A stretch of DNA of 42,083 bases from Minisyncoccota bacterium (GTDB lineage: Bacteria; Patescibacteriota; Minisyncoccia; Phycocordibacterales; DSPV01): the NCBI GenBank assembly GCA_036517235.1, contig DATDXL010000001.1, forward strand, positions 1-42,083, written 5' to 3'. Positions 2,428 to 42,083 of this stretch are shown piece after piece (position 1 is the first letter of the stretch; every line of letters begins with the position of its first letter). The notes beneath the pieces were generated by a model. The model saw nothing but the letters and a program-made list of their open reading frames with translations. It was not told the DNA's origin and did not search any database. A program made the translations under genes and the position numbers.

Positions 2428-4569
2428 TTATTTTCTTGAAGCAATAATTTCTTCCGCAACGTTTTTGGGCACCGTTTCGTAGTGATCGAATTCCATCGTG
2501 GAGGAACCACGGCCTTCGGACATCGAACGCAGCGCGGTCGTGTAGCCGAACATCTCGGCGAGCGGCACTTTTGCTCTCACCACTTTATTCATGCCACGCT
2601 CGTCAACGCCTTCAATGGTGGCGCGTTTCGACGAAAGGTGTCCGGTGATATCACCGATGAATTTTTCCGGCACCACCACTTCCATGCGCATAATGGGTTC
2701 AAGTATGACAGGCTTGGCACGCTTCGCGGCATCCTGGAATGCTTGCGACGCGGCGATTTTGTAGGCGATCTCCGACGAATCTACATCGTGGTAGGAACCG
2801 TAGGTGAGCTCGCAGGATATATCTACTGCAGGGAAACCCGCAAGGATACCGCGCTCCATGGCTTCCTTAACCCCTTTTTCGACTGCCGGAATGAACTCTT
2901 GGGGAATAACGCCTCCCTTGATTGAGTCAATGAACTCATAGTGGTCGTAGCGAGAAACGTTCTTTGGGATTTTCTTTCCCTCCACAAGCGGCTGCATCGG
3001 ACGAATGGTGAGTTTGACGTGGCCGTACTGACCTTTGCCGCCGGTCTGCTTGATGTATTTATGCTCCGCCTCCGCCTCCGCAAGGATGGTCTCCTTATAG
3101 GCGACCTGCGGCTTGCCGACATTTGCTTCGACGGAAAATTCTCGCTTCATGCGGTCCACCATGATCTCAAGGTGAAGCTCGCCCATGCCCGCGATGAGTG
3201 TCTCCCCTGTCTCAGAATTCGTGGAGATCCTAAATGTCGGGTCTTCGTCGGAGAGGCGCTTCAATGCCATGCCCATCTTCTCCTGGTCGGCTTTGGTCTT
3301 CGGCTCGATGCGCAAGGAAATAACCGGCTCCATGAATTTGATGGGGTCAAGGATGATGGGATTATTCTCGTCGCAGAGCGTGTGGGAAGTCTTGGCTTCC
3401 TTGAGGCCTACCGCCGCCGCGATCTCGCCTGAAAATACTTTTTTTACCTCTTCGCGGTGGTTCGCCTGAAGACGCACGATACGCGAAAGACGCTCTTTCT
3501 TCCCTGTCGTTGCGTTGTAGACGTAAGACCCCGATTCAACGGTACCCGAGTAGACGCGGAAGAAGTTGAGCTGGCCTACGAACGGATCGGTCTGAAGTTT
3601 GAATACAAGTGCAGAAAATGGCTCCTCATCAGAGGCATGGCGTACCATAGGCTCGCCGGTATTCGGATTGACGCCCGTAACAGGAGGAATATCCAGCGGT
3701 GACGGGAGATAGTCGACGACGGCATCAAGCACCAACTGTACCCCTTTGTTCTTGAGCGCCGAACCGGTAAAGACGGGGAATATCTGGTTGGCACAAACTG
3801 CTTTGCGCACGGTCTTTTTTAGATCATCAACGGAAATTTCTTTGCCCTCGAGGTACGCCTGCATTTGTGCATCATCGTGTTCGACTATTTTTTCGATCAA
3901 TTCATGCCGATATTTTTGGGCTTCTTCGAGGTAGTCGGCGGGAATTTCCGCTTCACGCACATTTTCTCCCATCTCGCCGTCGAAATAATAGGCCTTCATC
4001 TTGAGGAGATCGATGACGCCCTCATGCTTCTCTTCGAGGCCTATCGGGATCTGGAAACGAATGGCTTTTTTGGAGAGCCTCTCGAGAATGGATTTGTATG
4101 AAAAATCAAACGATGCGCCCATGCGGTCCATTTTGTTGATGAAACACAGGCGCGGCACCTCTCCGTCGTCGGCATAACGCCAGTTGGTCTCCGATTGAGG
4201 CTCAACACCCGCGACACCGTCAAAAACGACGACGGCCCCATCGAGTACGCGAAGTGAGCGTTTCACTTCAGCAGTAAAATCGATGTGTCCCGGGGTATCA
4301 ATGATATTGAAACGAACTCTCTTGGAGATGTCCCTACCCATGTAAACCGGGTTCCAGAAACAAGTGATGGCGGCAGCGGTGATGGTGATGCCACGCTCAC
4401 GTTCCTGCTCCATCCAGTCGGTTACAGTATCACCCTCGTGCACTTCGCCGATCTTATGCGTCATACCGGTATAGAACAAAATGCGCTCGGACGTGGTCGT
4501 CTTGCCGGCGTCGATATGGGCTATGATGCCAAAATTGCGTACTTTTTCCAGTGGGTAATCGCGGTTCAT
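2428..4569 (-). CDS. fusA: Translation elongation factor G
   Basis: 713 aa with the GTPase motifs AHIDAGKTTTSERILFYTG, DTPGHIDF and NKMDR, and full-length EF-G domain order. ATG start. Confidence 0.97.
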   Translation of the reverse strand: MNRDYPLEKVRNFGIIAHIDAGKTTTSERILFYTGMTHKIGEVHEGDTVTDWMEQERERGITITAAAITCFWNPVYMGRDISKRVRFNIIDTPGHIDFTAEVKRSLRVLDGAVVVFDGVAGVEPQSETNWRYADDGEVPRLCFINKMDRMGASFDFSYKSILERLSKKAIRFQIPIGLEEKHEGVIDLLKMKAYYFDGEMGENVREAEIPADYLEEAQKYRHELIEKIVEHDDAQMQAYLEGKEISVDDLKKTVRKAVCANQIFPVFTGSALKNKGVQLVLDAVVDYLPSPLDIPPVTGVNPNTGEPMVRHASDEEPFSALVFKLQTDPFVGQLNFFRVYSGTVESGSYVYNATTGKKERLSRIVRLQANHREEVKKVFSGEIAAAVGLKEAKTSHTLCDENNPIILDPIKFMEPVISLRIEPKTKADQEKMGMALKRLSDEDPTFRISTNSETGETLIAGMGELHLEIMVDRMKREFSVEANVGKPQVAYKETILAEAEAEHKYIKQTGGKGQYGHVKLTIRPMQPLVEGKKIPKNVSRYDHYEFIDSIKGGVIPQEFIPAVEKGVKEAMERGILAGFPAVDISCELTYGSYHDVDSSEIAYKIAASQAFQDAAKRAKPVILEPIMRMEVVVPEKFIGDITGHLSSKRATIEGVDERGMNKVVRAKVPLAEMFGYTTALRSMSEGRGSSTMEFDHYETVPKNVAEEIIASRK

Positions 4570-4954: not shown

Positions 4955-5171
4955 TGAACTTCTTCATGAGTTTTCTTAAATCTCCACGAAAAACCCTATC
5001 GGCTTTTATGTCCCTCTCAGATTCAAGTATTTCCTTTATCAGTTCTTCCTCCTGATACCACTCAAGGGCTTGGCGAACGGCATGTGCCTTATTGGCCGCC
5101 TTGCCGCTTTTTACAAGAGAATCTATAAATTCTTCCAGTTTCGGCGTTAATGGTACTGATAACGTAGACAT
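4947..5171 (-). CDS. ParD/CC2985-like ribbon-helix-helix antitoxin
   Basis: 74 aa. The N-terminus MSTLSVPLTPKLEEFIDSLVKSGKAANKAHAVRQALEW matches the ParD-type antidote pattern. It is translationally coupled to the toxin ORF. Confidence 0.65.
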   Translation of the reverse strand: MSTLSVPLTPKLEEFIDSLVKSGKAANKAHAVRQALEWYQEEELIKEILESERDIKADRVFRGDLRKLMKKFND

Positions 5172-5854: not shown

Positions 5855-6616
5855 CTATCTAGAAAATCCGCGGATGAATAAACCGACGATAGCAACAATA
5901 AATAGTAATACCGACGTGTATTTCATAAATCGCGCACGATTAGGAAACTCGGCCTTACGTTTCCCTGCAAGAAAAAAGAGGTAGAAGGGTATCGTCAGAT
6001 TAAGCACAAGAGTGGCAAGACCACCGAAACTAAGTAGTCGTTGGGTTGAAAAAGAATGGGATGACTCCTCAATTATTATACCGAGGGTAAATACCCCGAT
6101 AGTTAGAAGTACCCTTATGCCAGAAATCACTACTCTCACCCACATCTTTTTTAACCAGTGATCAGGAAGTGGAAGCCAGACAAGTACCAACAGGACTGCG
6201 CCCAGATAATCAAAAGATCTGTCTCCTCCATTTATAAGAACAAGAAGTAAAACGAGTACAAAAAGGTAAAAGGGAATTTCTTCTGCGGTTCTCCAGGTTT
6301 TGATAAGCGAAAAGACTATCAATTTCTTTTGCCCATCAATTAGTGCCGCTGGTGTTTGTACAGCATCCAACCGCGAGATCTGATCGCTGGTTACTTGAAC
6401 CTGAAGGAAAAATTTCCTCAAAACAGTCATAACCAGTACAGCAAGGGCAGTCACGGCAACTACATCTCGTACTATCTGCACCGCGTCCACTCCTAGAGAA
6501 GCTCCCTTGTACACGTAGTAGGACAAGCCTAGTAATAAAATTGCCACAACTATGGCGAGAAAACTTTTTGAAACCCCATTAGGTAGATGAGAAACAATCT
6601 TACGATCATTATCCAT
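5855..6616 (-). CDS. Polytopic membrane protein, unknown function
   Basis: 253 aa counted from the ATG at 6616 (MDNDRKIVSHLPNG...), with about 6 hydrophobic spans. The 110 aa upstream in the track ORF run through intergenic repeats and look non-coding. The start is uncertain, since a TTG a few codons upstream is possible. Confidence 0.55.
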   Translation of the reverse strand: MDNDRKIVSHLPNGVSKSFLAIVVAILLLGLSYYVYKGASLGVDAVQIVRDVVAVTALAVLVMTVLRKFFLQVQVTSDQISRLDAVQTPAALIDGQKKLIVFSLIKTWRTAEEIPFYLFVLVLLLVLINGGDRSFDYLGAVLLVLVWLPLPDHWLKKMWVRVVISGIRVLLTIGVFTLGIIIEESSHSFSTQRLLSFGGLATLVLNLTIPFYLFFLAGKRKAEFPNRARFMKYTSVLLFIVAIVGLFIRGFSR

Positions 6617-6703
6617 GTACCCGTTATATAATGATAGCGCAATCCAAAACAACGTGAATGTGCACAGACGTATATAAACTACAATGATGCCTTTGTAGTT
6701 TGT

Positions 6704-6838
6704 GGGTCTCGCAAGCTCTGAGCGAGGTATTACTTTTTCAGAACCTTGCACAGTCCCGAGTGCCTGTCGAGGGACGAGCAGAAAAAACCGCCAGCAGGCG
6801 GTTATTTGTGTTCTGAAAAATTGATTCCAAGCGACCGA
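6704..6838. repeat. Intergenic repeat copy X2 (tandem with X3)
   Basis: GGGTCTCGCAAGCTCTGAGCGAG ... hairpin AACCGCC-agca-GGCGGTT ... GTGTTCTGAAAAATTGATTCCAAGCGACC. The last 29-mer matches 7050..7078 with 2 mismatches. Confidence 0.6.
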
Positions 6839-31926: not shown

Positions 31927-33681
31927 CTACTCCGTTATCACCCTCAGCACCTCCTCAAGCGTTGTAACGCCTTGAACGGCTTTAAAGATCCCGTCTTCAA
32001 GCATCGTCATCATGCCCTCCCTCTTCGCCTGAACCTCTATCTCATCAGAAGCAGCCCCCTTGATGATGAGATTTTTGATGGTAGGGGTTACTCGCAATAC
32101 CTCGTGGATGACAACACGTCCGTGGAAACTATCATCAACATTCTCGCCGGAACCGGAGGGTTTATAGAAAGCGATCTTCTCCCATGTTTGCCCTTTTTCA
32201 ACGATTTTCTCTTCTTTCAAAAACCCGAGAACTCTATCGAGGTCTACAGACTTGCCCAGAGTTGCTAACTCATCTTTCGTCATAACATATTTCTGACGTC
32301 CCTTCTCTGTAAGACGGCGTACCAATCGCTGGCCGATGACGACATCCAAGGTCGAGACAAGGAGAAACGGCTCCACTTTCATATCAAGGAGACGAGGAAT
32401 AGCGCCAGCTGCCGAGTTGGTATGAATGGTAGAAAGCACGAGGTGTCCGGTGAGCGAAGCGTTGACCGCTAGCGATGCCGTTTCATTGTCGCGGATCTCA
32501 CCTACCATGATGATGTCGGGATCCTGGCGTACGAGCGAGCGAAGACCCGAGGCGAACGTGAATCCTATCTCCGGTTTCACTTGAGACTGGTTGATCCTCT
32601 TCATCTGGTACTCAACCGGATCTTCAATAGTGGAGATGTTGACATTAGGAGTATTCAAAATATCGAGCATGGTGTAGAGCGTTGTCGTCTTACCTGAGCC
32701 GGTAGGACCCGAGGAGAGTATCATCCCGGTCGTGCGTTTGAGACATTCATGGATATCCTCGATGGCTTTTCCGTGGAAACCGAGGCCTTCGAGCGTAAAT
32801 CCCGTTGAGTTTTCTTTGAGAAGGCGCATGACGATCTTTTCTCCAAAATAGGTCGGAAGAATAGAAACGCGAAAAGAGACTTTGTCGGTATCGGTTTCCA
32901 CTTTAAACCTCCCGTCCTGAGGAAGGCGCTTCTCATCAAGGCGCAGATTAGAGAGCACCTTGATGCGGGCCACAAGAGACGGGCCGACGTGTTTCGGCAA
33001 CACCATCGTATCGTGCAGGATCCCATCGATGCGGTAACGCACTACCACCTCGTGCTCCCCCTGTTCCATATGGATATCGGACGCGTTCTGTATAATGGCG
33101 TGCTTCAAAAGCGTATCGACGATGCGTACCACGGGGAGATCCTCAGCCATCTTCTTCAGGTCTTTTTCGGATACCGTATCCACACCTTCATGGACAGCCT
33201 TGATAGAGGTCGCTTCTTTTTTGATGATGTCACCGAATTCCGCCTTGAGCGACTTCTGGTACTGGAGAAGCACGTGCTTGATAGACTCGGTGTTCGTCAA
33301 GCGAGGCAAGATTTTTAGGCCCACTTTCTTTTTTACGAAATCGATAGCACCAAGGTCCGACGTATCGAGCATGGCTACCTCGAGTCCTTTCTCATCCTTT
33401 CTAAATGACACAATGTTATTGGTACGTGCGATGGGCTCAGGGATTAGCGAAAGAACTTCAAAATCCACCTTCTGGCCTCGGAGGTCGACAAAGGGAATCC
33501 CCAAAACGTACGCCTGCATGCGACGTAGATCATCTTCGGAGATCTTTCCTTGGCGTACCAGTTCTTCACCCAGAGAAACACCGCTTTTTTCGGCCTCCTT
33601 CTCTGCTTTTGCAAAATCAGCTTGAGAAACAAGCCCTGAATCAAGGACAAAATCTCTTAGTTGTTTTTTCTCGATAAACAT
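31927..33681 (-). CDS. pilB: Type IV pilus assembly ATPase (GspE/PilB family)
   Basis: 584 aa with Walker A GPTGSGKTTTLY, Asp box and Walker B (IMVGEIRD), a His box, and an N-terminal GspII_E-like domain. Confidence 0.93.
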   Translation of the reverse strand: MFIEKKQLRDFVLDSGLVSQADFAKAEKEAEKSGVSLGEELVRQGKISEDDLRRMQAYVLGIPFVDLRGQKVDFEVLSLIPEPIARTNNIVSFRKDEKGLEVAMLDTSDLGAIDFVKKKVGLKILPRLTNTESIKHVLLQYQKSLKAEFGDIIKKEATSIKAVHEGVDTVSEKDLKKMAEDLPVVRIVDTLLKHAIIQNASDIHMEQGEHEVVVRYRIDGILHDTMVLPKHVGPSLVARIKVLSNLRLDEKRLPQDGRFKVETDTDKVSFRVSILPTYFGEKIVMRLLKENSTGFTLEGLGFHGKAIEDIHECLKRTTGMILSSGPTGSGKTTTLYTMLDILNTPNVNISTIEDPVEYQMKRINQSQVKPEIGFTFASGLRSLVRQDPDIIMVGEIRDNETASLAVNASLTGHLVLSTIHTNSAAGAIPRLLDMKVEPFLLVSTLDVVIGQRLVRRLTEKGRQKYVMTKDELATLGKSVDLDRVLGFLKEEKIVEKGQTWEKIAFYKPSGSGENVDDSFHGRVVIHEVLRVTPTIKNLIIKGAASDEIEVQAKREGMMTMLEDGIFKAVQGVTTLEEVLRVITE

Positions 33682-33808
33682 AGGACTCCCAGAGGAGAAT
33701 GTACTCCTAAGTATATCGCAATAAAAAGCCCTCGTCCCCTATATTATTCGGAGCAAAAAACTGACGGGGGATACCGCTGCGACCTTTTTCTGGGTACCTA
33801 CCGGGGCC

Positions 33809-33836
33809 TTGACAGAAAAAACGCCATGAGTATACT
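33809..33836 (+). promoter_or_regulatory. Sigma-70-type promoter upstream of nusA
   Basis: TTGACA (33809-33814), a 16-nt spacer, then TATACT (33831-33836). Confidence 0.55.
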
Positions 33837-33849
33837 GGTATCCATGAAT

Positions 33850-33873
33850 GTTCGCCTTCCGGCGAACTTTTTT
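33850..33873 (+). terminator. Leader terminator/attenuator hairpin in the nusA 5' UTR
   Basis: GTTCGCC-ttcc-GGCGAAC followed by TTTTTT, between the promoter and the ATG at 33892. Confidence 0.55.
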
Positions 33874-33891
33874 ACTAACAACAAGAAATCC

Positions 33892-35151
33892 ATGTTATTC
33901 GATCTCAAAGTCATAAAATCAGTTCTAGATCAACTGCAAGAAGAACGCGGGATTGCCCGTGAAAAAGTGATCGAGGCAATAGAGATTGCTCTTGCAACAG
34001 CATACAAAAAAGAGTATGGGAAGAAAGGGCAGATCATACGCTCAAAGTTCGATCCCGATTCCGGCAAAACAGACTTTTTCCAAGTGAAAGTGGTTGTTGA
34101 TCCGAGCACCGTGCTTATGCCCGATGAGGATGCGCCTGAGGGAGAAGAGCTCGCATCTCCGCAAACCTCTGATACTGAAAAGATCCATTTCAATCCAGAA
34201 CATCACATTCTACTTGAGGATGCTCAAAAAATGAAAACCGAGGTGAAAGTAGACGACGAGCTTGTGTTTCCTCTGGAAGAAAAGTCTGACTATGGAAGAA
34301 TCGCGGCTCAAACTGCGAAACAGGTGATAATCCAAAAAATCCGTGAGGCCGAGAAGATATCCGTGATGGAAGAGTTCGGCAAACGCGAAGGAGAGATCGT
34401 ATCCGGAACCGTCCAGAGAATCGAACGCGGCAATCTCTTCGTGGATATGGGTCGCGCGAGCGCTGTACTCCCCTACGAGGAGCAAATTCCTGGGGAACGC
34501 TACAAGCAAGGTGAGCGCATCCGCGCGTATCTCCTCAAGGTAGATGAGACGCCTAGGGGTATTTTCCTTAAGCTCTCGCGCTCACACCCCAAATTCCTGG
34601 AACAGCTCTTCGCCCTTGAGACGCCCGAAATCGCAAGCAAGGTGGTAGAGATAAAGGCAATCGCGCGTGAAGCAGGATCTCGCTCGAAAGTAGCCGTAGT
34701 ATCGCACGATCAACACATCGACCCGGTAGGCTCTCTCGTGGGCCAGCGGGGTGTTCGTGTGTCAACCGTCATGTCTGAGCTCGGTGGAGAAAAAATAGAC
34801 ATCATCGAGTGGTCAGAGAATCAGAAACAATTCATAGAAGATGCCCTCTCGCCTGCGCGCGTGATCTCTGTGGAGATCACCGACGAGCAAGCAAAACAGG
34901 CAAAAGTCTCTGTCGCCACTGATCAGCAATCGCTCGCCATCGGCAAAGGAGGACAAAACGTGCGCCTTGCGGCAAAGCTCACGGGTTGGCGTATTGATAT
35001 CCAATCGGATCAAAATCTTGAAGAAAAGGATGACTCAGAAAAAGCCGAGGCAGTCGCAGAGACAACTCCTGAGGAGACCCAAAAAACAGAAAAAACCGTC
35101 GCTACCGAAGAGAAATCTGAGAAAAAGAAAAAAAAGGAAAAAGGGAAGTAG
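33892..35151 (+). CDS. nusA: Transcription termination/antitermination factor NusA
   Basis: 419 aa from MLFDLKVIKSVLDQLQEERGIAREKVIEAIE, with S1 and two KH domains (GQRGVRV, AIGKGGQNVRLA) and a Lys/Glu-rich tail. The upstream part of the track ORF is leader sequence. Confidence 0.9.
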   Translation: MLFDLKVIKSVLDQLQEERGIAREKVIEAIEIALATAYKKEYGKKGQIIRSKFDPDSGKTDFFQVKVVVDPSTVLMPDEDAPEGEELASPQTSDTEKIHFNPEHHILLEDAQKMKTEVKVDDELVFPLEEKSDYGRIAAQTAKQVIIQKIREAEKISVMEEFGKREGEIVSGTVQRIERGNLFVDMGRASAVLPYEEQIPGERYKQGERIRAYLLKVDETPRGIFLKLSRSHPKFLEQLFALETPEIASKVVEIKAIAREAGSRSKVAVVSHDQHIDPVGSLVGQRGVRVSTVMSELGGEKIDIIEWSENQKQFIEDALSPARVISVEITDEQAKQAKVSVATDQQSLAIGKGGQNVRLAAKLTGWRIDIQSDQNLEEKDDSEKAEAVAETTPEETQKTEKTVATEEKSEKKKKKEKGK

Positions 35152-35323
35152 ACGTGCCCATACCCCTGGCTTCTTTTTGTCGTTCCCTAAAAACAAAAAA
35201 TGACTGTTGCAAGAATAAGGGCAAGTGAGTACTATGTGAAATCATTCGCCAACGAGGCTTTCTTGTGCAGACAAGCGAAACAAGTAATGAATGTGCCATT
35301 ATAATTAACGTTTGAAGATCACC

Positions 35324-37345
35324 ATGGACCAACTGTTTTTGAACATCAGCAATCCTTTCATGCTCTTTGCACTCATCGCCGCCGTAGTGGCTATTGTGTA
35401 CGGCTTGCTGCTAGCACGTACCATATTCAAGAGAAGCCCCGGTAATGCCCGCATGCAAGAGATATCTGATGCGATACGCCAGGGTGCGAAAGCATACCTC
35501 AACCGACAATATAAGACCATCGGAGCCATCGCTCTCGTCCTTTTCATCATCTTATGGGCAGCACTGGATCTGCGCGTGGCGCTTGGATTTATTATCGGAG
35601 CATGCTTCAGTGCGCTTGCGGGCTACATTGGCATGAACGTCTCGGTGCGCACGAATGTGCGTACCGCGGAAGCCGCACGCCAGGGACTTGCCCCAGCGCT
35701 CTTGCTCGCATTTCTGGGCGGAAGCGTGACAGGACTCCTTGTCGTGGGATTGGCACTTCTTGGTGTCGCCGGATTTTATGCGATTACGGGAGATGTAAAA
35801 TCTCTTATCGGACTTGGCTTTGGGGCAAGCCTCATTTCAGTATTCGCTCGTCTTGGAGGTGGCATTTTCACCAAAGCAGCTGACGTCGGCGCTGACCTCG
35901 TTGGGAAAGTGGAAGCGGGGATCCCCGAGGATGACCCCAGGAACCCTGCCGTCATCGCTGACAACGTCGGTGACAACGTCGGTGACTGCGCGGGTATGGC
36001 AGCCGATCTTTTTGAAACCTACGTGGTAACCCTGGTTGCAACCGCGCTTCTCGGTCACCTTATCTTCCCAAACTTTGCCGGAGCAATCATCTATCCGATC
36101 GCCCTTGGCGGAACCGCCATTATCGCTTCTATCATTGGAATGTGGTTCGTCCGTCTCGGCAAGAGTCAAAACATCATGGGAGCGCTCTACAAGGGTCTTA
36201 TCGCTGCCGGTATCCTCTCTGCAATTTCCTTTTATCCTCTCACTAAAGTCCTCATGGAGGGAAATGGCCTCTACACAACGACCAACCTCTTCATCGCCGC
36301 GCTCGTGGGACTTCTCGTAACCGCAGCGTTCGTCATCATTACTGAATATTACACCTCAACAAAATATAAACCGGTACAGTCTATAGCCAAGGCATCACTT
36401 TCTGGGCATGGCACAAACATCATCCAGGGGCTTGCGGTTTCCATGAAAGCAACTGCTTTGCCTTTGATTACCATCGTTGCGGGAATTCTTATCACCTACC
36501 ACGTGGCAGGTCTCTATGGTATCGCGATCGCCGCGATGTCGATGCTCTCGATGGCGGGCATCATCGTCGCTATTGACGCGTATGGACCTATCACCGACAA
36601 CGCGGGGGGTATCGCTGAAATGGCAGAACTCCCTAAAGAAGTGCGCGATGTCACCGACCCCCTTGACGCGGTAGGAAATACAACCAAGGCGGTAACTAAG
36701 GGTTACGCTATCGGTTCTGCGGCATTGGCAGCACTTGTGCTTTTTGCCGCGTACACGCAAGAATTTGCTTCTCTCGGAAAAGAACTGGTCTTTGCCCTTG
36801 GCGACCCCAAAGTCATCGTGGGACTTTTCGTAGGAGGTCTTCTCCCCTACTACTTCGCAGCTCTCGCGATGGAAGCGGTGGGAAAAACCGCCGGAGAAGT
36901 CGTCAATGAGGTGCGAAGACAGTTCAGAGAGATAAAAGGCATCATGGAGGGCAAGGCGAAACCGGATTACGCGCGAGCAGTTGATATAGTCACCGGTGCC
37001 GCAATCAAACAAATGGTGCTTCCTGCTCTTATACCAGTGCTCGCGCCGATCATTGTCGGTTTTACGCTTGGACCTGTGGCGCTGGGCGGATTGCTCGTCG
37101 GCTCCATCATCACAGGGCTATTCGTCGCCATTTCTATGACATCTGGAGGCGGTGCATGGGATAATGCGAAGAAGTACATCGAGGCAGGAAATTTTGGAGG
37201 AAAGGGTTCTGACGCGCACAAAGCGGCCATCACCGGCGACACGGTAGGAGACCCGTACAAAGATACGGCTGGGCCAGCGATAAACCCCATGATTAAGATA
37301 TTAAACATCGTAGCGTTACTATTGGTAGGTTTTCTTGCTAAATAA
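35324..37345 (+). CDS. hppA: Membrane-bound proton/sodium-translocating pyrophosphatase
   Basis: 673 aa from the ATG at 35324, with [37 protein letters not shown] and [14 protein letters not shown] motifs. Confidence 0.95.
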
Positions 37346-37473
37346 GGTATCTTTGTAAGGGTCTGGGAAGGGGTCGGGAAACGGGAGTTTCCCGTACAGG
37401 AGAGCAACGAGTCTGCGAGCGTTGAGAACCGTGGGTTCTCAAGGAGGAACCCGCAGCGGGTGACGACGATTCG
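37346..37473 (+). other. Structured 128-nt spacer between hppA and its duplicated 3' end
   Basis: It opens with GTATCTTTGTA (37347-37357), the reverse complement of TACAAAGATAC at 37256 and 37474. It contains the hairpins CGGGAAAC-ggga-GTTTCCCG (37375-37394) and TTGAGAACC-gtg-GGTTCTCAA (37422-37442). Confidence 0.6.
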
Positions 37474-37563
37474 TACAAAGATACTGCTGGGCCAGCTATC
37501 AATCCGATGATAAAGATATTGAATATTGTAGCCCTACTGCTTGTTGGATTCCTAGCGAAGTAG
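37474..37563 (+). pseudogene. Displaced duplicate of the last 29 codons plus stop of hppA
   Basis: It translates to [29 protein letters not shown], identical to the hppA C-terminus. 19 of 29 sense codons and the stop codon differ at the nucleotide level. There is no start codon, and an in-frame TGA lies at 37423. Confidence 0.8.
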
Positions 37564-37772
37564 TCTCATCGTCCTCCTCTCGACCATCCCTTTCATCTTA
37601 GATACTCTTGCGTCCACTAAAGGGCGTTGGGTATAATGAGCGGCAGAATACAAAGGCTTTATTGCCTAGCGAATGAGTGGAAAGAAGAAATCTTTTTTCT
37701 TCTTTCCCGAACGAGCGACGGCAACAAAGAAATCTGTTTTCTTTATTAATCGTAGCTAATCATATTCACTCA

Positions 37773-38354
37773 ATGAAAAAATATTCTGGTATCACTGCAG
37801 TAACTGTTGGTGTTTTGGGACTCATGTTCTTCGCGGCATCCGCGTCAGCGCAGGTAACGAATACAACAGGAACTCCGCGCGAAAAAATGCAGGAGAAAAG
37901 GGAGGAGGTAAAAACCAATATTCAAGAAAAAAGAGCTGACGTAAAAAATCGGCTCGAGGATAAAAGAAAGAATTTGATACGATCGTATTCAGAGCGCATC
38001 GTTAAAAATCTAACTCAAACACTCGAGAGACTCGAGAATATCGCCAATCGTCTCAGCACACGCCTTGACAAACTCGTAGGCGAAGGAGTGTCGGTAACAG
38101 AAGCACGAACCAAACTTGCGGTCGCCAAGACAAAGATCGAGGAAGCAACAACTGCAGTCGGTACGATAAAAACATTCGTAGAAACGATGCTAGCATCGGA
38201 AGATCCCAAGGCCGCCTTCGAGCAAGTGAAAGAAGCTATAGAGCAGGCTCACGAGAAGGTACGCGCCGCGCACGCAGCTCTTGTTGATGTCATTAACTCG
38301 ATAAAACCGGGTCTGAACATAAAACCAAGCACCACAACCCCAGCGTCACCATAA
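37773..38354 (+). CDS. Secreted coiled-coil (apolipoprotein-like helical repeat) protein
   Basis: 193 aa from the ATG at 37773, with the signal peptide MKKYSGITAVTVGVLGLMFFAASASAQ followed by charged heptad-like repeats. Confidence 0.55.
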   Translation: MKKYSGITAVTVGVLGLMFFAASASAQVTNTTGTPREKMQEKREEVKTNIQEKRADVKNRLEDKRKNLIRSYSERIVKNLTQTLERLENIANRLSTRLDKLVGEGVSVTEARTKLAVAKTKIEEATTAVGTIKTFVETMLASEDPKAAFEQVKEAIEQAHEKVRAAHAALVDVINSIKPGLNIKPSTTTPASP

Positions 38355-38380
38355 TCTTTTTAAAAAGTAAAAAAATCACC

Positions 38381-38656
38381 ATGGACCAATCAAACCAAAT
38401 ACCACCAGTAATGCCATCCGCGAAACAGAAATCGGTCGGACCGGTTGTCGGCATTATCATCATCGTTATCGTCCTCGTCATCGGCGCCCTCTACTTCTGG
38501 GGAGCACAGCTCAATCGACAATCGCCGGAAGATACGAGCACGCCGCCGCTGAGCTCTTCTGACAGTATCGAGAATATCAACGCAGATCTTACCGCAACAG
38601 CCATTCAAAGCATCGACCGTGATGTCGACTTGATGGGAGCAGAACTCACACAGTAA
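38381..38656 (+). CDS. Small single-pass membrane protein (91 aa)
   Basis: ATG ORF with the transmembrane segment VGPVVGIIIIVIVLVIGALYFWG and a terminator downstream. Confidence 0.5.
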   Translation: MDQSNQIPPVMPSAKQKSVGPVVGIIIIVIVLVIGALYFWGAQLNRQSPEDTSTPPLSSSDSIENINADLTATAIQSIDRDVDLMGAELTQ

Positions 38657-39809: not shown

Positions 39810-40811
39810 TTAGGACTTTGGGCTTGGTGCTTCCAGCTTCTTTCTTACTATAAGCTCCAGCCTTTTGGCTTTGGAATGAGATAGCATTCCAAGATACGAC
39901 GGAAGGTTCTTTCCATTCACACACGAAAGCATGCGGTGCTTTGTTCTTGTCCTTAAAACTGTCCGATGCGGAAGAACGACGTATCCGAGAAAATCAACGC
40001 CTTGCCTTAATTTTCTAATCTCTATTTTCACCGGATGAAGCGAGAGAAATAATCGTTCGCGCAGAAATACTACGATATATCGTAGTATTTCTGTAAGCGA
40101 CGGGTCATCGGAAAAAATAAACACAAAATCGTCGCAGTAGCGGATATAGTATTTCTGTCTGAGTCTGTGCTTTATGAACTGGTCGAGCTCGTTAAGGTAA
40201 ATGTTGGAAAACAACTGGCTCGTGACATTGCCGAGCGGTAAACCCTTTCCACTGCTCGTCTCAAAAGACCTGACGATATGCACAACGAGCCCGAATAGCC
40301 TCTCGTCGGCTACCTTTTCGCGGATGAGTGAAAGAAGAATATGGTGGTCTATTGAATCAAAGAACTTCTTGATGTCACATTTGAGCACATAACCCTGTCG
40401 TCGAAAATTTGAAGTAACCTTTTGAGCAAAAATCTGGAGACGTTCTACGCCTGCATGGGTACCCTTTAGGTTTCGGGAAGAATAGGAGTCGTGGATAAAC
40501 GACGGGTCAAAAACGCCGTAGAGCCTTCGATACACTGCTTGAAAGAGCACTCGGTCTCTGACACTCGCTTTATGGATACGACGCAACTTAGGATCACGAA
40601 CGAAAAAAGATACGTATGGCTCGGGCTTCCATGTCCCTTGTGCTAGACTTTCATGGAGGGCGAAGAGCTCACCCTCAAGAGTAAGTTCAAATGCCGCAAT
40701 GTCCGATTTCTTTCGTTTTCCTCTGGCAAACTCGCGCCAAGCCGCAAAAAGATTTGGAAGTGAGATTACATCACAAAAACTAATACTATGATGACCCCCC
40801 CCCAACGACAC
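39810..40811 (-). CDS. DGR-type reverse transcriptase
   Basis: 333 aa with RT motifs KCDIKKFFDSIDH, LPLGNVTSQLFSNIYL (the DGR-typical [IL]GxxxSQ) and YIRYCDDFVFIF (YxDD). GTG start at 40811. The start is uncertain. Confidence 0.9.
   Translation of the reverse strand: MSLGGGHHSISFCDVISLPNLFAAWREFARGKRKKSDIAAFELTLEGELFALHESLAQGTWKPEPYVSFFVRDPKLRRIHKASVRDRVLFQAVYRRLYGVFDPSFIHDSYSSRNLKGTHAGVERLQIFAQKVTSNFRRQGYVLKCDIKKFFDSIDHHILLSLIREKVADERLFGLVVHIVRSFETSSGKGLPLGNVTSQLFSNIYLNELDQFIKHRLRQKYYIRYCDDFVFIFSDDPSLTEILRYIVVFLRERLFLSLHPVKIEIRKLRQGVDFLGYVVLPHRTVLRTRTKHRMLSCVNGKNLPSYLGMLSHSKAKRLELIVRKKLEAPSPKS
40062..40093. repeat. 32-bp perfect palindrome CAGAAATACTACGATA/TATCGTAGTATTTCTG inside the RT coding sequence
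   Basis: Verified self-complementary. It encodes TEILRYIVVFLRE and shares the 14-bp core TACGATATATCGTA with the palindromes at 24822 and 25305. Confidence 0.8.
40795..40803 (-). repeat. Homopolymer G9 (C9 on the plus strand) at codons 3-6 of the RT
   Basis: The plus strand reads ATGACCCCCCCCCAACG. On the coding strand it is GTG TCG TTG GGG GGG GGT. Confidence 0.8.
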
Positions 40812-40836
40812 CCTACCGATTATACATGCGATAAGA

Positions 40837-41151
40837 ATGCTGCATTTGGAGATTTACCGCATCGGTAAGAAACTGCCGAAGGGCGATAAGCTAGGCATTC
40901 ACGCGGAAGTTGAAAGGAAATGTTTCAAACTTCTCTCATGTTCCATAGAAGCCGCATATAGACCAAGAAAGGAAAAAACGGAAACGCTCGTGGAACTTCG
41001 CTTAACAACAGAAGTACTGAAGAATATCTGGCGCACAGAATGCGAACTTGGGATTGTGGATGAAAAGACCTATCTGCGCATCGCAGAGAAAATGGTAGAG
41101 ATATCAAAGATGACAAATGGTTGGATAACCTACACGCAAAAAGGAGCGTGA
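40837..41151 (+). CDS. avd: Avd-like four-helix-bundle accessory protein (23S rRNA IVS protein family)
   Basis: 104 aa. LEIYRIGKKLPKGDKLGIHAEVERKCFKLLSCSIEAA...LVELRLTTEVLKNIW...ISKMTNGWI follows the four-helix-bundle/Avd pattern. It lies on the strand opposite to TR and RT. Confidence 0.7.
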   Translation: MLHLEIYRIGKKLPKGDKLGIHAEVERKCFKLLSCSIEAAYRPRKEKTETLVELRLTTEVLKNIWRTECELGIVDEKTYLRIAEKMVEISKMTNGWITYTQKGA

Positions 41152-41170
41152 AAGCTCCTTTGATGCGAGA

Positions 41171-41276
41171 AACTTCGGGACGAAACCGCACGTTATCATT
41201 GGCATTGTCCAGATTCCAGTCGTTGACCTTCACCTTGCTATCGTTGAAGTTCACGTTCGGCACGTTACCGTCTGCG
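41171..41276 (-). repeat. DGR template repeat (TR)
   Basis: 41177-41276 aligns without gaps to 41513-41612. At all 20 mismatches this copy has A on the minus strand. Its translation NVPNVNFNDSKVKVNDWNLDNANDNVRFRP has 9 AAY codons. Confidence 0.9.
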
Positions 41277-41440
41277 ATTCGTTTTACCTCATTCCGTCCG
41301 TATCTCCGAGAATATTTCACAAAATTCTCTGTGTCCCACTCGGGGTACTCCGATCATGGTATGGAACAAGGCAAGCAGTTTCTTTGTGTGTGACCAATCG
41401 CCATACGCTTTAGCGGACCGACTGCACAGTCAACGTTAGT

Positions 41441-41472
41441 ATAGAAAATGCACCCTGATTGCTCAAGGTGCA
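41441..41472 (-). terminator. Hairpin plus T run about 20 nt after the target-gene stop
   Basis: On the minus strand, TGCACC-12 nt-GGTGCA is followed by TTTTCTAT. It could be a terminator or a VR-proximal structural element. Confidence 0.35.
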
Positions 41473-41491
41473 CGTGTGAAGAGTACAAGGG

Positions 41492-42083
41492 TTAAGAAGG
41501 AAGGTAAACTGTGGGACGAAACCGCACGAAATCACAGGCATGGCCCAGAGACCAGCCGTCGACCTTCACCCCGCCATCGCCGAAGTCCACGCGCGGCACG
41601 CCACCGTCTGCGGTTTCCGATTCGGCGCACATTGTCACCACCGCTCGATCCAGGAGCTTCTTGGAAGCGTTCTCCAAAAACACATCGGCGCCGAGCACCA
41701 GGCGAACCGGCAAGGTAGTCGTCCGGAGCCCAAACGGGGCAAGGGAGCGCACCGTGCGAGTGTTTACGTTGACGCCACCAAGTTTGCCGAACGGCGCTTC
41801 GTCATCATCCGCAACCCAGCAGCCGAAAGTACCGGTGACGTTGTGCTTTGGCACCGCTTCGTCCAAACTGGTGCTTCCGGAAAATTTCCAATGGTTGCAA
41901 GTGCCAGCCATCAGTTTTTCGTTGGCGCGGTAGAGAAGCTCCGAAGAGTTTCCTTTTTCGTGCATAACAATCAGGCGGGCTTTGAAGTGAGTTGGTGGCT
42001 TCGGAATCGGCAGTGCGGCAAAATCGGTATTGGTGCCATAGACCGTCTTCCACCGTCCTTCCCAGTGCTTCGCCAGCTCTGAT
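41492..42083 (-). CDS. DGR target protein, 5'-truncated by the window edge, with a C-terminal variable region
   Basis: The frame stays open from the window end to the TAA at 41492-41494, with no stop upstream of the listed Met. The last ~35 aa (ADGGVPRVDFGDGGVKVDGWSLGHACDFVRFRP) are encoded by the VR. Confidence 0.8.
   Translation of the reverse strand, partial: SELAKHWEGRWKTVYGTNTDFAALPIPKPPTHFKARLIVMHEKGNSSELLYRANEKLMAGTCNHWKFSGSTSLDEAVPKHNVTGTFGCWVADDDEAPFGKLGGVNVNTRTVRSLAPFGLRTTTLPVRLVLGADVFLENASKKLLDRAVVTMCAESETADGGVPRVDFGDGGVKVDGWSLGHACDFVRFRPTVYLPS
41507..41612 (-). repeat. DGR variable repeat (VR)
   Basis: It matches the TR at 80 of 100 positions (41513-41612). Substitutions occur only opposite TR adenines. 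It ends 15-20 nt before the target stop codon. Confidence 0.9.

Follow-up and report, generated by a model that had tools for sequence, protein, structure and literature searches.

Introduction

Integrative elements that enter tRNA and protein-coding genes at their 3' ends classically replace the end of the gene and leave the displaced original behind. In fungal mitochondria, mobile endonuclease open reading frames (ORFs) of the Allomyces atp6 type bring in a foreign C-terminal segment in frame, and the original is left untranslated downstream. Here we describe a duplicated gene end in a stretch of 42,083 nucleotides from a Minisyncoccota bacterium (GenBank assembly GCA_036517235.1, contig DATDXL010000001.1, positions 1 to 42,083 of the forward strand), which we call the window: the last 29 codons of hppA, the gene of a membrane pyrophosphatase, recur downstream of the gene behind a spacer which carries a folded core and an antisense copy of the duplication boundary. 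This locus belongs to a family of compact units, and we argue that it is probably a small homing-type mobile element without ORFs, which supplies a replacement for the gene end and displaces the native end.

The family has features in common with several described systems. As in the islands moved by tyrosine integrases between attP and attB sites, including those of the archaeal pNOB8/SSV type, a 3' segment of the gene is carried, the gene is kept intact and the original lies displaced downstream; likewise, the joined ends form a permuted copy of the target and successive insertions leave stacked partial ends. With group I and group II introns the family shares an internal guide complementary to both sides of the junction (the internal guide sequence in P1/P10, and the exon- and intron-binding sites, EBS/IBS), the choice of ultra-conserved sites in essential genes (tRNA, translation factors, ribosomal proteins) and site-specific lineages with occasional new sites. 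The bridge and seek RNAs of IS110/IS1111 and the omega RNAs of IS200/IS605 (TnpB/IscB) are likewise structured RNAs within mobile elements, with sequence specifying the target or donor junction of the element itself, and miniature inverted-repeat transposable elements (MITEs), Correia, ERIC, RUP and REPIN are likewise small and without ORFs, occur in many copies, have the potential to form hairpins and presumably depend on mobilisation in trans.

Results

The duplicated end of hppA

The hppA coding sequence extends from 35324 to 37345 on the plus strand and encodes 673 residues; PF03030 is recorded for P0001, a protein 100% identical to the hppA product of the window. Its last 29 codons constitute the first of two copies:

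37256-37345, plus strand: copy 1 (D1), the translated last 29 codons and TAA; putative replacement end travelling with the element
37474-37563, plus strand: copy 2 (D2), the untranslated last 29 codons and TAG; putative displaced native end

The two copies encode the same 29 residues followed by a stop, and they differ at 21 of 90 nucleotides, of which 2 fall on the first base of a leucine codon and 19 on the third base of a codon. These differences affect 19 of the 29 sense codons (20 sense nucleotides) and, apart from the exchange of the TAA stop for TAG, each of them is a synonymous change. The original prediction had pointed to this synonymous-only divergence and had argued that a decaying duplication would gain non-synonymous changes, and both points hold: with 20 random substitutions placed in copy 1, no outcome free of amino acid changes was obtained in 200,000 trials, the mean being 13 changes against none seen, and the analytic probability of an all-synonymous outcome is p ~3e-13. 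The two ends do behave like those of functional hppA alleles that evolved separately, which agrees with its view that they come from two different alleles. All 120 closest homologues have the same residues 1-22 in this peptide, and identity of the peptide alone is therefore less surprising than identity combined with saturated synonymous divergence.

Copy 2 starts 128 nt downstream of copy 1, in a frame that differs from that of the copy 1 stop (128 = 3×42+2). As had been claimed, it lacks a start: an in-frame TGA is found at 37423-37425, 17 codons upstream, and no start codon lies between this TGA and the copy. The near identity of the first 23 nt, likened there to an att core, is also observed, with a single mismatch at 37267, and this shared start of 11-23 nt does mark the junction. 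An artefact of assembly (strain collapse) or a decaying local tandem duplication can be given a negligible probability. The structure between 37200 and 37650 is the same in five independent assemblies of one species (ERZ4903072, ERZ27254763, ERZ27254767, JGI 3300025317 and ERZ27254752; loci L001, L002, L185, L186 and L187), which excludes the chimera of strains that the original prediction had asked to be considered; four other lineages share the layout, and the neutral drift expected of a decaying copy is that of the simulation above. The tail duplication is confirmed as real and far beyond chance.

The strain at L187 (P0122, a co-occurring strain with 4 contigs) carries 3 SNPs (single-nucleotide polymorphisms) relative to the window across ~3.7 kb, and 2 of these fall at the junction, at 37255 and 37267 (locus positions 3432 and 3444). 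The first, G>A, affects the last base ahead of D1, and the second, G>T at D1 position 12, produces the state of D2. Noticed post hoc, this pair is suggestive of a trace of local exchange, and it is the sole signal at strain level.

Anatomy of the spacer

The 128-nt spacer is a complete module and not a remnant. Two of its parts had been missed in the original prediction, namely an 18-nt antisense copy of the junction behind the stop codon and a conserved folded core. The features involved are:

37249-37266, plus strand: junction and target site, AGACCCG then TACAAAGATAC, straddling the upstream duplication boundary and complementary to the guide
37347-37364, plus strand: guide, GTATCTTTGTAAGGGTCT, 18 nt, reverse complement of 37249-37266, directly after the D1 stop
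37365-37467, plus strand: conserved structured core, composed of GGGAAGGGGUC, hairpin A, GUACAGGAGAGCA, arm B, hairpin C, GAG, hairpin D and GACGAC
37375-37394, plus strand: hairpin A, CGGGAAA / UUUCCCG with loop CGGGAG
37404-37421, plus strand: variable arm B, GCAACGAGUCUGCGAGCG; in the alignment its length and sequence differ across the family, and some members lack it
37422-37443, plus strand: hairpin C, UUGAGAACC GUG GGUUCUCAAG, the most conserved block, which served as search pattern
37449-37461, plus strand: variable hairpin D, ACCCGC AGC GGGU, different or absent in other hppA lineages
37468-37473, plus strand: U', GATTCG, a degenerate mimic of the GACCCG that precedes D1; U' and the start of D2 pair with the guide and close the core

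The target AGACCCGTACAAAGATAC consists of 7 nt unique to hppA and the first 11 nt of copy 1, and the guide is complementary to it at 17 of 18 positions (94%; inverted repeat I1). The 5' 11 nt of the guide pair with the start of D2 too (37474-37484), and both C-to-T changes that turn GACCCG into GATTCG keep G.U pairing with the guide possible. No conserved U.G is present at the junction in this pairing, the window having a G/A mismatch and L004 a G-C pair. Folded as RNA, the spacer reaches -50.4 kcal/mol (z = -3.3), with several hairpins and a closing stem made of the guide and the start of D2.

A covariance model (R1), built from 61 members of the family described below, matches the window at 37367-37467 with 94.5 bits (E = 1.7e-26). 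This is the sole real match, a weak one of 10.6 bits at 3340-3426 being inside coding sequence and taken as chance. The window locus thus combines the three traits by which the family is defined: the core (hairpins A and C with the GGAGAG and GAC motifs), the antisense guide and the second copy of the target. Rfam models gave no family matches over 35000-38000 at E <= 10, and ARAGORN found 0 tRNA or tmRNA genes over 36500-38500. A P2 helix (GUCG/CGAC) closing the core was considered and dropped, as the natural variants GGCC and GTTC occur without compensation. Two highly conserved single-stranded stretches of the core, GGAGAG (37399-37404) and AAGGAGG (37440-37447), are Shine-Dalgarno-like family-wide, and no conserved start codon follows them.

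A family with a common core and a guide

One metagenome scan with the hairpin C pattern TTGAGAACCNNGGGTTCTCAAG (20 specified bases) retrieved 93 matching stretches, comprising 84 distinct sequences, 71 of which carry the upstream core anchor. The order of the core is RRRGGGGUC, hairpin A, GUGNNGGAGAGCA, variable arm B, G and hairpin C, GAG, variable hairpin D and GCGAC(GAC). Hairpin A, which is 98.6% paired, covaries strongly, with 50 double-change cells compared to 15.3 ± 2.8 in shuffles (0/500), and the signal collapses when the partners are slid. The invariance of hairpin C in the pattern-found set results from the search pattern, which required it; divergent copies found with the model (L115b and L097b) keep this hairpin through double changes (UUGAAAACC/GGUUUUCAAG and UGGGAAAACC/GGUUUCCCA).

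All well-resolved loci have the same order of parts: gene body, U/D1 (U being the gene sequence ahead of D1), loop, guide, core, U' and D2. The elements are ~100-220 bp long and ORF-less, with guides of 14-18 nt, and some of the loops between D1 and guide hold a terminator. In 45/71 loci the guide has a partner (14 nt or longer, no more than one mismatch) located 0-182 nt upstream and never kilobases off, and the guides co-vary with their targets. Watson-Crick pairing of the guide reaches 73% at the upstream target and 55% at the downstream mimic; the duplexes of guide and downstream copy average -18.5 kcal/mol, versus -12.0 for mismatched partners.

These observations bear on the larger integrative element of which the original prediction took the ~218 bp at hppA to be the remainder. 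In its outline, mobile DNA that supplies a replacement 3' end, the proposal stands, and a native-type terminator behind D2 in L004 and L144 fits its displaced original; the idea of a remnant does not stand. Replacement of the gene end with displacement of the original is indeed the classic signature of integrative elements, and the att-like sharing expected of them is found, with 11-41 nt common to U/D1 and U'/D2 and D1 completing the gene. However, the 218 bp are the whole element: the conserved core recurs in equally compact units, free of cargo and with loops of 0-182 nt, at more than 70 loci, and independent deletions would not converge on one co-varying 100-nt structure. No integrase is found near any of the 84 loci, and clustering of the ORFs within 4 kb of them returned only target genes and their operon neighbours, with no recurrent recombinase, transposase, nuclease or reverse transcriptase. 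A large integrase-mobilised island, later almost wholly deleted, is consequently a very improbable origin of the hppA locus. An autonomous copy or one with cargo was sought and rejected, every guide-target partner being within 182 nt and the ORF clusters being target genes only. Two 23-nt core blocks had 0 matches in IMG/VR and there is, therefore, no evidence for a phage satellite.

Targets and signs of mobility

The targets include at least 26 co-oriented tRNA genes, which belong to 13 or more types and have the junction in their T arm. At 13 loci the element sits at the rplL 3' end, and the 5' ends of EF-G/LepA/TypA-type GTPase genes are occupied at 12, the element being antisense to the latter with its junction at the AH(I/V)D codons; rpsI and hppA are among the further targets. 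Mimics similar to U' are present at the rplL and GTPase targets also, and elements that share a target class have a conserved U'. Across targets the duplication measures 16 to ~100 nt. In loci whose reading frame is clear, nearly all differences between D1 and D2 are silent (synonymous / non-synonymous):

window: 19 / 0
L144: 16 / 2
L106: 13 / 2
L132: 13 / 0
L162: 12 / 1
L164: 11 / 1
L146: 7 / 1
L101: 7 / 1

The lone non-synonymous change is mostly in the U' mimic (His to Pro/Gln in the GTPases, Pro to Ser/Leu in hppA).

The distribution of the element is patchy, several contigs contain two or three copies, and truncated copies are seen in L099, L145b, L156 and L171. A nested double insertion is found in L097 (reverse strand, about 6300-6720), downstream of tRNA-Gly(CCC), with two cores and three successive tRNA 3' ends, each followed by a different terminator hairpin. 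Hairpin C of the inner (upstream) core has co-varied, and the second guide matches a sequence variant (T-variant) of the pseudo-end immediately upstream.

Two further loci show other arrangements. Behind D2 at the rplL 3' end of L099 (reverse strand), another guide leads into the initial 20 nt of a core, after which the sequence passes into a terminator; this extra piece is a second unit that was truncated, or else a partial duplication in tandem. In L182 (reverse strand, about 470-610), the element faces the tRNA gene head-on, the sequence behind its core corresponding in reverse complement to the tRNA-Ile(GAT) 3' part.

The hppA site in related lineages

The organism of the window stands close to Candidatus Taylorbacteria. 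Three further deep hppA lineages (L004-7, L088-9 and L144; 82-84% amino acid identity) have the same architecture as the window, and others represent decayed or empty sites:

P0003 (L004-L007, L106): filled; D2 with one L->P change (L004)
P0007 (L088, L089, L096): filled; D2 with a 1-nt deletion near its end (frameshift, L088)
L144: filled; D2 intact, only the terminal residue separating it from D1 (R in D1, K in D2)
P0002 (L003): D1 and guide retained; most of the core and all of D2 gone
L008-L013, L016, L090 (more distant): empty; single end, then a plain terminator
Empty hppA target sequence: GGAGACCCGTACAAAGATACTGCTGG

Model R1 has no match on the empty hppA sites. In a genome scan with the C-terminal half of hppA, the genes recovered were mostly proteobacterial or from other members of the Candidate Phyla Radiation (CPR), and all of them have single ends without spacer, that is, empty sites. 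The drift towards non-synonymous changes that would have spoken against two functional ends is not observed in the relatives, as D2 is either intact or affected by the single late lesions listed above, or lost, as in L003. In this last lineage (4999-5060) a guide-like GTATCTTTGTATGTGTC stands right after the hppA stop and is followed by one hairpin only, with no second gene end: L003 is a decayed element whose replacement end is now the sole end.

Each lineage's guide matches its own junction (GACCCGTAC / GTAAGGGTC vs GATCCGTAT / ATACGGATC), a relation which holds in L004, L088, L144 and L003. The window pairs GACCCGTACAAAGA with TCTTTGTAAGGGTC, L004 and L088 pair GATCCGTATAAAGA with TCTTTATACGGATC, and compensatory changes between guide and junction are found at three synonymous sites, in Asp, Pro and Tyr codons. 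In all four filled lineages the guide starts 0-1 nt past the D1 stop with no terminator after D1, U' is GAYTYG, and a G directly precedes D2. Long blocks of the spacer are identical across hppA lineages despite saturated synonymous sites. A native-type rho-independent terminator follows D2 in L004 and L144; a simple scanner found none after D2 in the window species.

Such a conserved module might instead be a vertically inherited cis-acting RNA, intron-like or involved in processing: removal of 37256-37473 would join hppA to D2, so that both ends would be translated and selected. The topology resembles P1/P10 of group I introns, as the 3' half of the guide pairs with the exon end and its 5' half with the start of D1 or D2, and the G before D2, the co-variation of the guide with synonymous sites of the gene and the preservation of D2 coding across deep, apparently monophyletic lineages all fit this explanation. 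Nevertheless, we consider it unlikely. The GTPase loci weigh most here: because the element is antisense to these genes and sits at their 5' ends, mRNA splicing cannot be what keeps D2 coding there, and the same synonymous-only pattern of D1 and D2 is found. In addition, terminators separate D1 and guide in several loci, tRNA targets are complete already with D1, D2 is frameshifted in L088 and deleted in L003, and the core, which has no match among the intron and ribozyme models of Rfam, does not come near the size of any intron that splices itself.

Neighbouring features in the window

A promoter-like TTGCGT-18 nt-TATAAT, which was not among the features listed by the simple scanner, lies at 37609-37638, ~45 nt past D2; the next gene downstream of it (37776-38354) encodes a secreted protein with coiled coils. 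Upstream of hppA, the NusA gene (33661-35151) has a long Lys/Glu-rich low-complexity tail (about 35040-35150), which is shorter in relatives (387-391 aa in L003-L007 vs 452 aa called in L001 and L002). The window also contains, at 39810-41965, a complete diversity-generating retroelement (DGR) unrelated to the hppA duplication:

39810-40808, minus strand: reverse transcriptase (RVT_1)
40837-41148: bAvd-like gene
41170-41279 and 41506-41615: template and variable repeats, 110 nt, 79% identical

Of the 23 mismatches between its repeats, 21 fall where the first copy has a T, or an A when the minus strand is read, and the variable repeat forms the 3' end of the minus-strand ORF 41492-41965. Its reverse transcriptase is 2.3 kb away from the duplication, and a DGR origin of the latter was rejected, since the D1/D2 mismatches involve all bases with no adenine bias and the family is not linked to reverse transcriptases.

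Discussion

A probable homing-type element that carries a gene end

We have argued that the hppA locus probably holds a small mobile element which supplies a gene end. The unit, composed of D1, guide, core and U', would insert at one defined junction in a highly conserved stretch near the end of an essential gene and, as it brings along its own copy of the gene end, the target would stay intact. It would spread between genomes at the same site in a homing-like manner and occasionally move to new ones. The guide, as RNA or single-stranded DNA, may align the sites by base pairing across both junctions; U' and the start of D1, at the two ends of the element, repeat the target sequence (U, then the start of D) in permuted form, and with such pairing the logic of the exchange would be that of attP x attB. 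That D1 and D2 show synonymous differences only would be explained by both having served functional genes as working ends, with D2 in use until the insertion or kept in use by gain and loss of the element at the level of populations.

The assignment of D2 as the native end is inferred from sequence features: terminators follow D2, the guide adjoins the stop codon of D1, D and guide are inherited together in L097, and L003 has lost D2 but not D1. With the opposite polarity, a unit of guide, core, U' and D2 would have landed just downstream of an intact gene, the guide recognising a conserved junction in it, with D1 native and D2 a foreign fragment, e.g. a homology arm that serves recombination from one genome to another. 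The better fit of the guide to the upstream, functional copy and the contiguity of U' and D2 with the conserved 3' end of the core, U' being conserved within a target class, would agree with such a unit, and codon usage does not separate D1 from D2. It has, however, a low probability in our judgement: at hppA a guide that abuts the D1 stop with no terminator in between, and the native-type terminators that follow D2 instead, are not expected from it; the fit of the second L097 guide to the T-variant just upstream is simplest if D and guide travel together; and L003 is without D2 yet retains D1 and guide. Lineage-specific residues on which the two copies seem to agree (F in the window, R in L088) were examined as a further indication and set aside, being weakened by L144 (R vs K) and by F being the majority residue of the wider group.

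Several points weigh against a mobile element with D2 as the native end. No candidate for the catalyst emerged among the genes within 4 kb of the 84 loci. Codon usage and GC content at third positions (GC3) are identical for D1 and D2 and do not tell which is native. A strain-level pair of filled and empty sites was not found, all five assemblies of the window species being filled and the P0121 and P0122 members too. The four filled hppA lineages and the L003 remnant are mutual closest relatives, and D1-D1 distances are as saturated as D2-D2 distances, these distance matrices of 90-nt copies being uninformative; as a result, a single old insertion followed by vertical descent is possible. In that case selection on D2 is needed, which the mobile-element model explains through population turnover only. 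The counts of G.U and A.C (65 vs 46) give weak support to an RNA-level, strand-specific structure. Finally, the family was ascertained with one exact hairpin pattern, and its count neither sets the true breadth nor excludes autonomous relatives.

Turnover with re-invasion has been proposed for homing endonuclease genes and introns. If the element is old at hppA, polymorphism between filled and empty sites and re-invasion would keep D2 intact, and the lesions of L004, L088 and L003 would be the aftermath of fixation. The catalyst could be the core itself or a trans-acting protein. A more specific proposal, which we put forward as doubtful though worth stating, is that the ~100-nt core is the active part, as a ribozyme or as guide scaffold of an unlinked protein, and performs a base-pair-splinted exchange similar to attP x attB; the family would then be a new class of ORF-less, self-targeting mobile elements, retargeted by copying the target into the guide and harmless by virtue of the spare gene end. 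Such an exchange might proceed by integration or excision at the RNA level with later fixation in DNA, or by RNA-guided recombination of DNA.

Comparison with described systems

The differences from the described systems are as marked as the similarities. Unlike integrative elements, the family members measure 100-220 bp, have no integrase or other ORF (no tyrosine or serine integrase fits into the 218 bp at hppA), possess a folded core and an antisense junction copy, and also occupy 5' ends of genes in inverted orientation. Unlike introns, they leave the gene uninterrupted and are oriented independently of its transcription; the core of ~100 nt has no Rfam intron match, and a conserved U.G at the junction and an intron-encoded protein are both absent. 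A group I P3-P9 core (Rfam Intron_gpI) would take ~200 nt or more, and for group II (six domains, domain V, reverse transcriptase/maturase) there is neither an Rfam match nor a linked reverse transcriptase. In Rfam searches of 18 family loci at E <= 0.1 only neighbouring tRNAs were found; small self-cleaving ribozymes (hammerhead, twister, pistol, hatchet, hepatitis delta virus (HDV)-like and hairpin) had no match there or at the hppA locus.

With respect to IS110 and IS200/IS605, no DEDD recombinase, TnpA, TnpB or IscB is encoded nearby, and no HEARO or IS605-orfB match was found in Rfam. A guide in one contiguous piece, which lies where the core begins to close and pairs in cis with the target mimic at its base, takes the place of the two-loop bridge RNA, and the family has a long and variable gene-end duplication. 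The Allomyces atp6-type elements encode the endonuclease that drives them and are without RNA-like core or antisense guide. Unlike those of MITEs, the inverted repeats are derived from the target and differ with each target, with no terminal inverted repeats of a parent transposon, and the place of a fixed short target-site duplication is taken by a synonymously diverging gene end of 20-100 nt. Searches of the open-access literature by concept and by core sequence returned no description of such elements, which is absence of evidence, and this family of guide-bearing mini-elements in CPR/Patescibacteria is apparently undescribed.

Implications

If this interpretation is correct, CPR bacteria carry an undescribed gene-less mobile element which recognises conserved sites of essential genes by means of a built-in complementary segment. 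The sites are those of tRNAs, L7/L12, S9, EF-G/LepA-type GTPases and the H+/Na+-pyrophosphatase, and the host would be spared by the recoded gene end. Whether a structured RNA or DNA module of ~100 nt can direct its own site-specific insertion is testable with defined sequences, and would have a bearing on programmable insertion tools and on the origin of introns and of guide-RNA transposons. Duplicated gene ends, partial tRNA 3' halves and odd structures in 3' untranslated regions of CPR genomes would then have a common cause, rather than being assembly errors or pseudogenes.

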